Of a stretch of DNA of 64,000 nt, positions 1,593 to 64,000 are shown one piece after another (positions within the stretch are counted from its first letter, which is position 1; each line of letters begins with the position of its first letter). The stretch lies in sequence record NC_070991.1. The stretch is one strand, 5' to 3'. The position numbers were made by a program, and so were the translations under genes. Origin of the DNA: Escherichia phage vB_EcoP_WFI101126. Under the pieces are notes generated by a model. The model worked only from the letters and a program-made list of their open reading frames with translations, did not search any database and had not been told where the DNA came from.

Positions 1593-1614
1593 GCCTCCTT
1601 TGGGAGGCTTTTTG
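1593..1614 (+). terminator. intrinsic terminator: GCCTCC/GGAGGC stem, 4-nt loop, T-run
   Basis: Hairpin plus TTTTTG read directly, 6 nt after stop at 1587. Confidence 0.55.
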
Positions 1615-1643
1615 TGTTGTTGATAATGTAGAAGGAGTATAAA

Positions 1644-8988: not shown

Positions 8989-8994
8989 AACTAG

Positions 8995-9019
8995 ACCCTG
9001 CCTTCGGGCGGGGTTTTTT
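8995..9019 (+). terminator. intrinsic terminator: 8-bp stem ACCCTGCC/GGCGGGGT, TTCG loop, T6
   Basis: Read directly, 7 nt after stop at 8988. Confidence 0.7.
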
Positions 9020-9047
9020 CGTTTTAAGACCTATACAAGCTAGTGTG

Positions 9048-9057
9048 TAATGTATAT
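9048..9057 (+). promoter_or_regulatory. TAATGTATAT motif, about 33 nt upstream of ATG 9090
   Basis: One of at least six near-identical copies upstream of gene starts on both strands. Confidence 0.4.
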
Positions 9058-9851: not shown

Positions 9852-12800
9852 ATGATCAGTTACAACAACTCAGCACCTAATGCAGTTAATAACGTAGGTC
9901 AGTTTGGTGCTACAGAAGGCTCTATCGGTGCTTACAAATCAGCAGCTGAATATGCATCTGATTCCAAGTATTGGGCGATGCTTTCTCAAAAGAACTATAA
10001 CAACATTGGTGAGATTCTTAAAGAAGTAGAAAGACTTTATGCAGAAGGTAATTTATTAAAAGAAGATATTGAACAACTCAAATCTGATTTTGAAAACCAA
10101 AACCAAATACTTCTCGGACTCATTCAGCAAACCGGTGAAGCCATTGACAACACTAATACTGCTATTGGCGAAGCTAATGCAGCAACAGATCGAGCTAACC
10201 AAGCAGTGCAAGATGTTCTTGCTCAATTAGATAAGATTTCTAACATGTCTGTTGTTGCTACAACCCTTCCTCCGGGAACCCCTGCAACTGGGAGTTTTGA
10301 TAACAGTACAGGTGTTTTCTCTTTTGGTATCCCCGAAGGACAACCCGGTAAAGACGGCAAAGATGGAACGGACGGTACAATCTCTGATATTGGGGATGTT
10401 GCCATAAGCACCCCTGTGTCTGATGATTACGGATTCTTTGTGGATAAAGATGATGGTGGTTTGTATCGAACTCCGATGAGTGAGATCGCTAAGTTAGTTC
10501 CGGCAGTGACCAGTTTCAATGGTCGTACTGGTCCTGTTGTTCCAGCTGCTGGAGACTACACAGTAAGTCAAGTTACTGGCGCAGCTGCTTCTGGTGTTAA
10601 CAACGATATTAACCAGATTCGCGGGTTAACCACTGCCTTATCTGTAGCTCAGGGTGGTACAGGTGCTAAGAATGCAGATGACGCTAGAACTAACCTATCT
10701 GCAATGCTTGACTCTAAAACAGGGCTTGACGGAACAACAAATCTCAATGACTTAAATGGATTAAAAGCTGGGTTTTATTACCAACCTGCTTCTGCTAATG
10801 CAAAACCAGAACTTAACTACCCTACACAACTGGCAGGTTCTTTAGTAGTAGTCAAGACAGGTGCAGGTACAGGATATTCATGTAAGCAGGTTTATAGTTT
10901 ATACAACAACCCTAACGTAACCTACTCTCGTGTACTTAACGCCAGTGCAGGCCCAACCTCTCCTTGGTCTGAATGGGTAAGACATGTGGCCCTAAGTAGA
11001 GTAGAAGAGGGATCTTCCGCTACTTACATGTACTCCTCTTACGCTCCGGATGCTCCTAGACTTCAGGTTTGGACTAGTGGTTTGTGGGGGTGTCATAACG
11101 GTACTAACTGGGTTCCTTTGTCCTTAGCTCAAGGTGGCACTGGAGCAACATCAGCAGCTGGTGCTCGAGCTATTTTAAACTTGGATAGGTTTGTAGCAAC
11201 AGCATCAGAAACTCAGATGCTCTCCTCTTCTGGAGACAAGAAGGTTTTCATTAACAGTAATAATAACACATGGGGATGTTATGACATTACCAACTCTCGC
11301 TTTATCCCACTAGGGATCAATCAGGGAGGTACTGGAGCAACCACTGCTGATGCAGCTCGTATGTCTCTTGTTGCTGCTAAGAGTGGTGCTAACTCTGACA
11401 TAACCTCTATGACTAATGTGGTTAATTTCACTCAGTCTCCAACAATCCCCGATGCAGTGTCTTCTAATGAGCCTGTTGCTCTTGGGCAACTTTCCACAGA
11501 AACTGCCGCTTTGGATACGAAGATAACAGAAGCTAAGGATGCTGCTGCTGCTGCTAACACTAATGCTAATAGCAGAGTTCTCACTTCACAACTATCAGAT
11601 ACATCTGAAGTTGCTCAAGGGGACGCTTTAGTGGGGGTTATGGCTCCTTTTACTGGTGCTACTGCTCGTACTCAGCATGATAAAAACCTTGATGTGATCT
11701 CTATAGCTGACTTTGGTGGTGGTACAAACTGGTCAGATAACGGTCCAGCTCTTCAGAGAGCAATCACATATGCAGCTTCTGCATCTGGTAACAACCGTGG
11801 TATGGTTTATATCCCTCCGGGAGTGTGGAATTTCACTTCTGGCGTAACTGTTCCGGGTAACGTTTCTATTAAAGGGGCTGGGGTTGGTTCAACCCAATTA
11901 AAAATAAATTCTGCTAACTTAGTTTTATTTGATGTTGGTAACGGAACCAATAACCCGAACAACGTCAGTATCTCTGATTTACATGTTCTTGTAAGTTCCA
12001 CTTGCACAGCAAACCCTTTATTCCGTTTTAGAAATGGATATAATTGTGGTATTGATAACATCCGTGTTGATGGGCCTTGGTATGACCTTATCCACTTCCG
12101 TGGTGGTGCTGCTCAGTTCGTCTACCGAGTCTCGGATAGTATCCTAAACGGTACTTCAGCTAGCCGTCATACGATTACCATTGGTGAATCTTCATCAGAC
12201 GGTGTTGTTCAAGATGTTTTCTTAACAAACTTAGTCCTTGGTGGAAGAACTACCGGATACGGTGTTTATGAAAAATACTCTTCTGGAGTTTATGCGACTA
12301 ATGTTGATTCTCTCAACGTTAACGTAGGTTGGGCTTGGGAACCTGCTACTGGATGTTACTGTAAAGGAAGTTTCTACACTGCAATTCTTGGTGATACTAA
12401 CTCTACAGCTGGTCTTAGAATTAGACCTCAGGCTGGTACAACAGTTAATGACTTAACTTTCAATGGATGTTGGGTAAGTTCCGCTGGGTCTAACAGTTCT
12501 CATCATGGTTTGATCATTGATAGTTCTGCTGGTACTGTAGCAAACATTAGCTTTAATGGTTTAACTGCTGTGAACAACAAAGGTCATGGTGTCTACATTA
12601 ATGGATCTACTACTGGATACGGTTATGAGTTCACAAACCTTAGTGTCTCTAATAACAGTCAAGCTGGTGCTTCTCTGTGTAGTGGTATGAAAATTGTAGC
12701 CGGTTCTTCTCACATAAACATTTCTAATGGTCATGCGGGTGGTACTCTTGGTTTAGGTACAAACAACCAAGCCTATGGTATTGACGTTGAGGCTGGTACT

Positions 12801-18870: not shown

Positions 18871-19905
18871 ATGGCTTATGGAATATGGACAAGACCTGCT
18901 GGACCTGGACCTGCGGCAGCTTCTGACATTTATATTGACAGCAATACAACTTTCCCACAACTTAAGAATAGGGTTAGTGGTAATTATAACTTTAATGGGG
19001 GCAGTAGAGATTTCCCTATTTCTGGATGGGATGGCTCAGGCCAAATCGTTGTAGTCCCTACCGGCTCTTTGTGTTGGCAATGGGAAGTCCCTCCTAACCT
19101 CGTCCCTGATGTGTATGTTGTAAACAATATCAGTATTGTAAATAACTCAACTTTCAGGGTTAGCATAAACATGAATCCCGGAAGTAACCCGCTGTTTGAC
19201 GTGGCTTTCAATGTATATCAAATATGGCCTAGAGCCAATAGAAACTATGGTATAACCTTTTCAAACACAGCTGATTACTTCTCTATATCAGATGCTGGAG
19301 TTGTTGGTCAATGCATTTGGGCTTGGGAAGGAAATATTAATGGCTCTATGCAAGTTCCTGCCATTAGTGGTTTTGATATGTCAAGAGCTTCGGTATTTGC
19401 TAACTGGTCTGGAGGGCAAGGTTTACTATACGATGCAGGTAGTCGTAATATCAGAGTTTATCAAAATAGAACATACGACAATGGAAACAACAACCAAACA
19501 GGTACAATTAACAATGTTAGGGTTGCAGTATTCTGTGATGGGGCTGGAGTCCCTACGCACAACGGTGGATTGAATATCTACTCACCTAATGGTTCTCAAT
19601 GCGTATTTTCTACTTACAGGACGCCTTTTATAGTTGATCGTTTTATGGCTATGAGTGGAGGGGATACTGGATTATCATACCCTATGATTCCTCTGACAAA
19701 TGGGGCTGGTTCGATTAGAGGTCAAGCTGGTAGTTGGTATTTCCAACACGCAAGATCCCATATAATGAACGGGTCTTCTTTTGGCACAGGGTATGGTCGA
19801 TATATGTTCCAGTGGGATAGAAGTTACGATATGGGTGGTGGTGGAGCTATCTCCCTTCAGGTTCCAGTGCTAGATGCTAGGAAGATTTTTAGAAGCATAC
19901 AATAA
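18871..19905 (+). CDS. virion structural protein (possible receptor-binding/tail tip)
   Basis: 344 aa; Gly/Asn/Ser-rich; position within tail gene block. Confidence 0.45.
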   Translation: MAYGIWTRPAGPGPAAASDIYIDSNTTFPQLKNRVSGNYNFNGGSRDFPISGWDGSGQIVVVPTGSLCWQWEVPPNLVPDVYVVNNISIVNNSTFRVSINMNPGSNPLFDVAFNVYQIWPRANRNYGITFSNTADYFSISDAGVVGQCIWAWEGNINGSMQVPAISGFDMSRASVFANWSGGQGLLYDAGSRNIRVYQNRTYDNGNNNQTGTINNVRVAVFCDGAGVPTHNGGLNIYSPNGSQCVFSTYRTPFIVDRFMAMSGGDTGLSYPMIPLTNGAGSIRGQAGSWYFQHARSHIMNGSSFGTGYGRYMFQWDRSYDMGGGGAISLQVPVLDARKIFRSIQ

Positions 19906-23855: not shown

Positions 23856-24474
23856 ACAAGCTGCTCAGAGTTTTAACTTCAACCCGAAAGAAGTCCGTCT
23901 TGCTCAGAATACAGCTGAAGGTACGGTTGCTAAGCAGTGGGCAGAGAAAGGTGGCTTGTTTAACCAGTCCAATAAAGACTTGGACTTGGCTGATAAAGCT
24001 GTTAAGGACAAAGATTATCAGACGGCCCGTTCTGCTTACATGCAGGCTATCATGAACTCCGCAAGGGCTGAAATCGGTGCTACTCGTTCTCTTACCGAAG
24101 AAGACTTGGGACACTTTGCAGAAGACCCATCAATCTTCGTTCGTGTTGGTAACAAGTTTGCACTTAAATCTGGATGGCGTCCTACTGATTCTGCTCTTGC
24201 TTATGCTCGTAAGCAGGCTAACGTTGGTCACACCTCTGCAATGAAAGGTGTTGCTGATGCTAAGAGAGCTACGATTGAAGCTTATATCGGTTCTGGTATG
24301 GATAAGAAGAGAGCTACTGCATTGGTCAACCGTGCAATCCCTTCTGGTGGTTTCTATGACCCTCTAGGTGTTTTCTCTGAACAAGCGGAGGAAGCAGTTG
24401 GTGGTGCAGCAACCAATCCTAAGCTTAATGGTGCTTTATCGGCTGTAGAAGATACTAGCTGGTTCACGCAATAA
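23764..24474 (+). CDS. C-terminal portion of the split internal virion protein (track ORF, TTG start; first ~47 codons probably not native)
   Basis: Frame continues from second repeat copy to 24474; would join upstream ORF if one copy were removed. Confidence 0.45.
   Translation: MDIVIKLRLNVLNKLLRVLTSTRKKSVLRAEQAAQSFNFNPKEVRLAQNTAEGTVAKQWAEKGGLFNQSNKDLDLADKAVKDKDYQTARSAYMQAIMNSARAEIGATRSLTEEDLGHFAEDPSIFVRVGNKFALKSGWRPTDSALAYARKQANVGHTSAMKGVADAKRATIEAYIGSGMDKKRATALVNRAIPSGGFYDPLGVFSEQAEEAVGGAATNPKLNGALSAVEDTSWFTQ
23794..23903 (+). repeat. perfect 55-bp tandem duplication (23794-23848 and 23849-23903)
   Basis: Read directly; the two units are identical base for base. Confidence 0.85.
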
Positions 24475-24481
24475 GACCTAA

Positions 24482-24516
24482 GTCCTGCCTTCTATAATGT
24501 ATATAGGGGGTAGGAC
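24482..24516 (+). promoter_or_regulatory. 8-bp stem hairpin (GTCCTGCC/GGTAGGAC) whose loop carries TAATGTATAT (24495-24504); T-rich tail follows
   Basis: Read directly; about 38 nt upstream of ATG 24542. Confidence 0.4.
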
Positions 24517-31481: not shown

Positions 31482-32765
<1,284 letters not shown>

Positions 32766-34279: not shown

Positions 34280-34296
34280 ATGTATAGTATACATTA
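34280..34296 (-). promoter_or_regulatory. palindrome ATGTATAGTATACAT containing TAATGTATAC on the minus strand (34296-34287), about 60 nt upstream of the SSB gene
   Basis: Read directly. Confidence 0.4.
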
Positions 34297-34359
34297 CGCT
34301 TATACCGATAAGAGTACTATATAATATAAGTATCTTTGGTAGTAGATATAACACACTAG

Positions 34360-34369
34360 TAATGTATAT
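34360..34369 (+). promoter_or_regulatory. plus-strand TAATGTATAT copy in the 416-bp intergenic region
   Basis: Read directly; no plus-strand gene nearby. Confidence 0.3.
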
Positions 34370-34464
34370 ATTGTATAGCTGATAAAGTTATTGCAGGCTT
34401 GTATATTGGGCAATTCACAGAATCCCTTGCAAGTACCGAAGGGCAGGAGCCACCTGCGAGATAA

Positions 34465-34530
34465 AAATAGAGAATTAAGGAATCCTTGATTTAGGTTGTA
34501 GGGACTCCTAGGGACTTTGATTCTCTATTT
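34465..34530. repeat. 11-bp inverted repeat (AAATAGAGAAT / ATTCTCTATTT) enclosing 44 nt that include a direct repeat TAGGGACT x2
   Basis: Read directly; no clean U-tail on either strand. Confidence 0.5.
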
Positions 34531-34774
34531 AAAAGAATATTAATTACTTATTACCTAAATAATTAACTAACTTACTTAAACCAAATTCAAGAATAATAGA
34601 TAAAAAGATTATTCCTAAGAAAGCTAAAAAGTAAAGGATATAAGTTACCATTCAAGTAAACCTTTAAAGTTAGTTTGTTCTACTATCCTCTGATAACGAA
34701 GATTAGAATCAGCTTGTTTCTTTAACATCTCATTATATTGATCTCTGATAGAGTCTTTATATACTACAGGTTCT

Positions 34775-36632: not shown

Positions 36633-36788
36633 AGTTCAGCCAGTTCTAAATAATATTGTGCTTCATCAGCACGTCCTTGTTCACTACAGATGGCGCTTTG
36701 ACGATAACACCAATCCGATGGCATCTCTTCCACTTCAATCTCCTTGTTACGAACCAATCAATAAGAATAGTTCATTCGTCTTATTTGT

Positions 36789-40699: not shown

Positions 40700-40709
40700 G
40701 TATACATTA
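40700..40709 (-). promoter_or_regulatory. TAATGTATAC motif, 35 nt upstream of ATG 40664
   Basis: Read directly. Confidence 0.4.
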
Positions 40710-46165: not shown

Positions 46166-46175
46166 TATATACATT
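46166..46175 (-). promoter_or_regulatory. AAATGTATAT motif variant, about 39 nt upstream of ATG 46127
   Basis: Read directly. Confidence 0.35.
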
Positions 46176-46200
46176 TGAGAGTTACCATATCTACTACCAA

Positions 46201-63937: not shown

Positions 63938-64000
63938 ATTGATTCCTATTTAAGTTTCAGGCTAATATTAAGGTGCATACATGCCCTGTTCTGTACAGCA

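Follow-up and report, generated by a model that had tools for sequence, protein, structure and literature searches.

The promoter motif and its setting

The window, i.e. the whole 64-kb stretch of DNA that was analyzed, is organized like phiEco32: the structural genes occupy the + strand as far as ~29 kb, and the - strand carries the replication and early genes. A 6-kb segment surrounding the gene for the sigma-like protein shares 99.7% identity with Escherichia phage Ptacy1532 (Kuravirus) and matches 97 phiEco32-type coliphages in total; judged from these similarities, the window is that of a phiEco32-type Kuravirus coliphage. The sigma-like ORF itself (31861..32505, - strand) encodes a protein identical to the phage sigma factor gp36 of phiEco32 (214/214 residues), matches chain F of 9m7y in the PDB (E=1e-145) and shows a weak Sigma70_r2 match in Pfam. 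The gene for gp79 (52107..52355, - strand) likewise encodes exactly the phiEco32 protein (82/82 residues).

A pattern scan with the decamer WAATGTATAY identified six exact matches, at 9048-9057, 24495-24504 and 34360-34369 on the + strand and at 34287-34296, 40700-40709 and 46167-46176 on the - strand. An earlier note on this DNA had listed near-identical copies at six sites; all of them were found, except that the last one, placed at 46175-46166, was off by one base. Dinucleotide-preserving shuffles of the 64-kb window yield a mean expectation of 0.65 matches and none of 100 shuffles attained six, so the motif proved commoner than chance. The hexamer AATGTA alone exhibits no enrichment in the window (44 observed vs 43.4 expected), hence the signal resides in the 9-10-mer together with its placement. 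Every WAATGTATAY copy is intergenic, and the gaps between genes make up ~4-6% of the sequence (a hand estimate from the gene table). One of two weaker variants pointed out earlier, at 1624-1633 (TAATGTAGAA), is also real and corresponds to the published P6 sequence TAATGTAgA, which brings the copies to seven. The other variant (63975-63984, GCATGTATGC) lacks the AATGTA core, equals no published promoter and was rejected as a promoter candidate.

Equivalents of the phiEco32 promoters

The phiEco32 sigma factor promoters have the experimental consensus TAATGTATA and lie upstream of genes 6, 13, 26, 40, 58 and 68 (Guzina and Djordjevic 2015, PMC4331800). Six gp36 promoters with the consensus tAATGTAtA are also given for phiEco32 by Lavysh et al. 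(2022, PMC8948821), whose Table S2, covering the phages phiEco32, NJ01, ECBP2, KBNP1711, SU10 and 172-1, has TAATGTAgA for P6, TAATGTATA for P13, P26, P40 and P58, and aAATGTATA for P68; the identical set of six sequences appears in the SU10 paper (PMC4281155). The promoter mapping in phiEco32 (Pavlova et al. 2012) is used here as relayed by later citing papers, according to which transcription from the gp36 promoters starts 6-8 bp downstream of the motif (PMC8948821).

Matches to the published promoters were identified at 1624 (P6), 9048 (P13) and 24495 (P26) on the + strand and at 34287 (P40), 40700 (P58) and 46167 (P68) on the - strand. Alignment with phiEco32 confirmed that all six lie upstream of the respective homologs of genes 6, 13, 26, 40, 58 and 68, and the promoter regions, including the gene starts, are near base-for-base identical. 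Besides TAATGTAGA at 1624, the window contains six exact copies of the -10-type element tAATGTAtA, in agreement with Table S2 of PMC8948821, and the deviant sequences of the window, TAATGTAGA and AAATGTATA, are the very ones published for P6 and P68, respectively. The recurring motif TAATGTATA is the gp36 promoter element published for phiEco32-type coliphages and is, as such, already known. The phage-specific promoter proposed in the earlier note thus agrees with the published gp36 promoters in its motif, its six sites and their gene positions; the accompanying comparison with phiEco32-type late promoters was right about the type of phage but too narrow about the class, as the set comprises both middle (P40, P58, P68) and late (P6, P13, P26) promoters. 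The motif, the six sequences, the gene neighborhoods, the sigma factor and gp79 are all common to the window and phiEco32 (Pavlova 2012; Lavysh 2022; Xu 2025), with no difference of substance beyond the isolate, that of the window being nearest to Ptacy1532. The value of the motif finding is therefore that of confirmation, in that a well-studied promoter class and its sigma factor were recovered from raw sequence. Its practical use lies in the annotation of Kuravirus records: the promoters are unannotated in most of the deposited ones, including the closest relative, and the SU7 record has generic predicted promoter features only.

The seven copies were aligned in the register of the cryo-EM numbering, with the first A of AATGTA as -14. 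T-38 and A-34 are then invariant (7/7), and positions -38..-34 read T-R-R-N-A throughout. A-34 is one of the contacts made in the -35 region of P68; the other, G-37, is present in only three copies (P6, P68 and 34360(+)) and is replaced by A in the remaining four, so the reading of the -35 region varies between promoters. KBNP1711, which belongs to another genus, retains the TRRNA pattern even where the flanks differ, and across three genera the motif blocks are invariant and the spacers variable. Three intragenic AATGTAKA copies, at 12599(-), 19210(+) and 31639(-), lack the T-38/A-34 pair and were rejected as promoters; the one at 19210(+) is also missing from phiEco32. From their sequence they are read as chance occurrences; the seven sites picked out by the TRRNA pattern are also those that defined it, which makes its apparent specificity partly circular.

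Among the late promoters, the P6 equivalent (1601..1632, + strand) exhibits TGGGA at -38..-34 and TAATGTAGA at -15..-7, and ends 11 nt before the ATG of the gene 6 homolog at 1644. Its region is identical to the P6 region of phiEco32, and the upstream element shares bases with a terminator-like hairpin (1593-1608). A Shine-Dalgarno sequence (GGAG, 1634-1637) precedes the predicted transcription start at ~1639(+), so that P6 transcripts would have a leader of only ~5 nt before ATG 1644; transcripts reading through P6 would retain the ribosome-binding site, unlike those started at P6. The equivalents of P13 (9025..9056, + strand; gene start 9090) and P26 (24472..24503, + strand) both combine a TAAGA(CCTA) upstream element with TAATGTATA and share the block TAAGACCTA at -38..-30 (9025-9033 and 24472-24480). 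A terminator-like hairpin (8993-9016) is located directly upstream of P13, and P26 has its -10 element in the loop region of a terminator-like hairpin of 15 bp (~24481-24515) with a T-run behind it. The latter hairpin could form in transcripts arriving from upstream and not in those started at P26, which would begin inside its 3' arm.

The middle promoters are all on the - strand. The P40 equivalent (34288..34319) reads TAGTA ... TAATGTATA, drives the operon containing the sigma gene itself and is invariant in 12 phages of three genera; that of P58 (40701..40732; gene start 40664) reads TAGCA ... TAATGTATA, with TGGCA in the same register in KBNP1711 despite different flanks; and that of P68 (46168..46199; gene start 46127) reads TGGTAGTAGATAT ... 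AAATGTATA. P68 has the block TTGGTAGTAGATAT (46186-46199) in common with the unlisted copy at 34360(+) (34337-34350). Both this block and that of the late promoters P13 and P26 are retained in KBNP1711, and such class-specific upstream elements could underlie the middle vs late timing.

The distance between the end of the motif and the start codon is 33 nt for P13, 34 nt for P26, 59 nt for P40, 36 nt for P58 and 40 nt for P68, and the range of 33-60 nt previously assigned to most copies describes these five well (33-59 nt); it does not describe P6, with its 11 nt, or 34360(+), which has no downstream gene. Similarly, the hairpin said to stand just before the motif is seen at P6 and P13 and weakly at P68, but not at P40, P58 or 34360(+), while the hairpin of P26 encloses the motif.

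The reader proposed earlier, i.e. the sigma-like protein encoded at 31861..32505, is 100% identical to phiEco32 gp36, for which the mode of promoter recognition is known from the open complex of RNA polymerase, gp36, gp79 and P68 solved by Xu et al. (2025, PMC12276001). In this cryo-EM complex P68 is contacted at -14..-11, -37G and -34A: the N-terminal domain of gp36 reads A-14, A-13, T-12 and G-11, and its C-terminal domain makes contact with G-37 as well as with the T that lies opposite A-34. The gp79 protein displaces region 4 of sigma-70 and stabilizes gp36, thereby inhibiting the sigma-70 holoenzyme and co-activating the gp36 holoenzyme; P26 is transcribed in vitro by the latter, and gp79 stimulates transcription 4-fold from P26 and 3-fold from P68 (PMC12276001). 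We consider it highly probable (about 0.95) that the motif of the window is a -10-type element (tAATGTAtA, -15 to -7) of promoters for E. coli core polymerase with gp36. The mechanism, the start sites and the gp36 dependence have been established for phiEco32 and are carried over to the window by sequence identity. Transferred in this way, the scheme would run from the host sigma-70 holoenzyme, which would read the early genes, these including, or leading to, gp36 and gp79, to the displacement of sigma-70 region 4 by gp79, which would also stabilize gp36 in its C-terminal domain. The N-terminal domain would read A-14, A-13, T-12 and G-11, with the DNA opened from -11, the C-terminal domain would contact the -35 region at -37 and -34, and transcription would begin 6-8 nt past the motif. 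On the + strand, P6, P13 and P26 would serve as late promoters for the packaging, head and tail genes; on the - strand, P40, P58 and P68 would serve as middle promoters for the replication and nucleotide-metabolism genes, P40 being located upstream of the sigma gene itself.

Two other phage systems resemble this scheme. Salmonella phage 7-11 possesses a related sigma factor, gp47, and a similar promoter layout over its late genes, but its promoters have their own, explicitly two-part consensus (GTAAtg-N16-aCTA; PMC4331800, PMC8948821), and it has neither a gp79 homolog nor a middle gene class (PMC8948821). The analogy to the T4 middle promoters (AsiA/MotA) is drawn by the authors of PMC12276001 themselves: in both cases a small phage protein disables region 4 of sigma-70 and a phage specificity factor redirects the host polymerase. 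In T4, however, sigma-70 is kept and MotA is added, whereas here a separate phage sigma factor replaces sigma-70.

Might these promoters instead be read by the host sigma-70, or by both sigma factors, and so not be specific to gp36? The authors of the SU10 paper regarded TTGGTA in P68 as a sigma-70-like -35 element and the middle genes as possibly read by both holoenzymes (PMC4281155), and our sigma-70 scan over the 34360(+) copy revealed a weak 9/12 match (TAGATA-18-TATATT). Nonetheless, a good TATAAT/TTGACA pair is present in none of the copies, and AATGTA, their conserved core, does not constitute a -10 element for sigma-70; moreover, as far as recounted in PMC8948821 and PMC12276001, the six promoters of phiEco32 were identified with the gp36 holoenzyme, and transcription by sigma-70 is shut off by gp79. 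We regard recognition by sigma-70, alone or beside gp36, as very improbable. The alternative raised in the earlier note, i.e. an operator for a phage DNA-binding regulator with no promoter element, gained no support and has hardly any chance of being correct: it would explain a short, conserved and intergenic motif, but the motif is non-palindromic, agrees in orientation with the downstream gene in 6 of the 7 copies, keeps a fixed distance to a second conserved element and to the published start sites, and contains the very bases contacted by sigma in the cryo-EM structure (PMC12276001).

The unlisted copy at 34360(+)

Beyond the equivalents of the six published promoters, the sole new lead is the seventh copy (Panti; 34337..34368, + strand), which consists of a TGGTA(GTAGATAT) upstream block, a 10-nt spacer and TAATGTATA. 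It is located in the 315-bp gap between the homologs of genes 40 and 41, diverges from P40 and runs antisense to the middle genes. Its 14-nt upstream block and its 10-nt spacing are the same as in P68, G-37 and A-34 included, i.e. the bipartite sequence is present in the correct register, and it is conserved in relatives. The copy is shared by phiEco32 (36704-36713) and KBNP1711 and is conserved in 7 of 8 sequences from metagenomes and other sources. Among 12 phages of the genera Kuravirus, Suseptimavirus and Nieuwekanaalvirus, the spacer varies, the -10 block is invariant, and the upstream block is conserved apart from a single G-to-T change, in ES17. The copy appears in none of the three published promoter lists (PMC4331800, PMC8948821, PMC4281155), and the literature search on phiEco32-type phages revealed no origin and no antisense promoter, the 2012 mapping being represented in both cases by the papers that cite it. 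A scan of IMG/VR with the degenerate pattern TGGTAGTA-N13-17-AATGTATA identified mostly chance matches in unrelated contigs. Given its bipartite sequence and conservation, the 34360(+) copy is probably a seventh gp36 promoter. In an ES17-like metagenome contig (ERZ1034915 NODE-75) the equivalent site exhibits a G-11 to A substitution that yields a perfect TATAAT, and this particular promoter may have switched to the host sigma-70.

The conserved noncoding stretch and the AT-rich tract

The 34360(+) copy is followed by a conserved noncoding stretch (34375..34535, + strand) comprising a 5' stem-loop, an exchangeable module in the middle, a core of nearly constant sequence with two copies of TAGGGACT, and a long hairpin (34465-34530); the region ~34440-34530 is nearly invariant, more so than the adjoining coding sequence. 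The stem-loop begins at the predicted +2 of the 34360(+) copy and has compensatory changes in two base pairs, U-A/G-C in one and C-G/U-A/A-U in the other. This covariation is thin, being limited to one 5-bp helix and 8 distinct sequences, and its power is low because scans with segments of the conserved core identified no more than 5 relatives among viruses and 6 in metagenomes, almost all of them close ones. The G-U pairs are consistent with an RNA of the + strand, and folding compared with shuffled sequence gives z = -2.3 for the + strand vs z = -1.25 for the - strand. The middle module (34396-34437) occurs in two unrelated forms, one of 42 nt and one of ~68 nt with its own TCTCTCA/TGAGAGA hairpin (MN05, ECBP2 and ES17 compared), which are distributed as a mosaic across genera, as if swapped by recombination. 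The two TAGGGACT direct repeats are 10 nt apart (34499-34516), and in ECBP2, EK010, Bas87 and XT32 both of them lack the same G and read AGGACT; this coordinated loss suggests that the repeats are putative tandem binding sites.

There is no credible ORF downstream of the 34360(+) copy. A coding interpretation was rejected, as it would have to rely on TTG-start ORFs of 21-32 aa, which are disrupted by the alternative module of the relatives. The Rfam scan of the conserved stretch, at gathering and relaxed thresholds, revealed no credible family, and the tRNA scan revealed no tRNA gene. The search of the window for base-pairing targets of the putative RNA identified only 10-11-mers, in about the number expected by chance according to our own estimate.

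Could the undescribed seventh promoter make, from ~34375, a conserved noncoding RNA of ~160 nt, which would be either an sRNA or a transcript that activates or primes an origin? We put this forward tentatively, at somewhat less than an even chance. A competing explanation, itself doubtful and still to be reckoned with, is that the 34360(+) copy is a non-functional by-product, for example a relic of a P68 duplication or a sequence preserved through its overlap with upstream elements of P40, and that the conserved stretch acts on the - strand, either terminating the P58 operon or binding a protein. It would agree with the absence of the copy from the three published lists, with the terminator-like appearance of the - strand (a long hairpin, then TTTTTAT), with the loss of G-11 in one metagenomic relative and with the narrow base of the covariation. 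Against it stands the conservation of both blocks around a variable spacer in 12 phages of three genera. Moreover, in ES17-type phages an insertion of 130 nt parts the copy from P40, while its link to the downstream element is kept, and the position of the covarying stem-loop at the predicted +2, the fit of the G-U pairs to the + strand and the stronger folding signal of that strand likewise speak against a by-product.

The conserved hairpin is directly followed by a very AT-rich tract (34520..34609, GC 0.15-0.18). In phage T7 the primary origin consists of the phage promoters 1.1A and 1.1B followed by an AT-rich region. The 34360(+) copy, alone among the seven, is placed in the same way, as a phage-specific promoter (34337-34368) leading into an AT-rich region beside replication genes. 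The two arrangements differ in that the promoter here is sigma-dependent and not one of a single-subunit polymerase, and in that the promoter is separated from the AT-rich tract by ~160 nt of conserved structured sequence. On the model of T7, the transcript from 34360(+) is a candidate activator of a putative origin at this tract. A seventh promoter, if real, would mean a further noncoding transcript or an origin in this phage, the transcription program of which is deemed fully mapped. The AT-rich tract also wholly contains a doubtful ORF of 35 aa annotated as 'gene 41' (34544-34651, - strand). This ORF is missing in ECBP2, EK010, Bas87 and XT32, in which the sequence differs and is still AT-rich, and it may not be a real gene.
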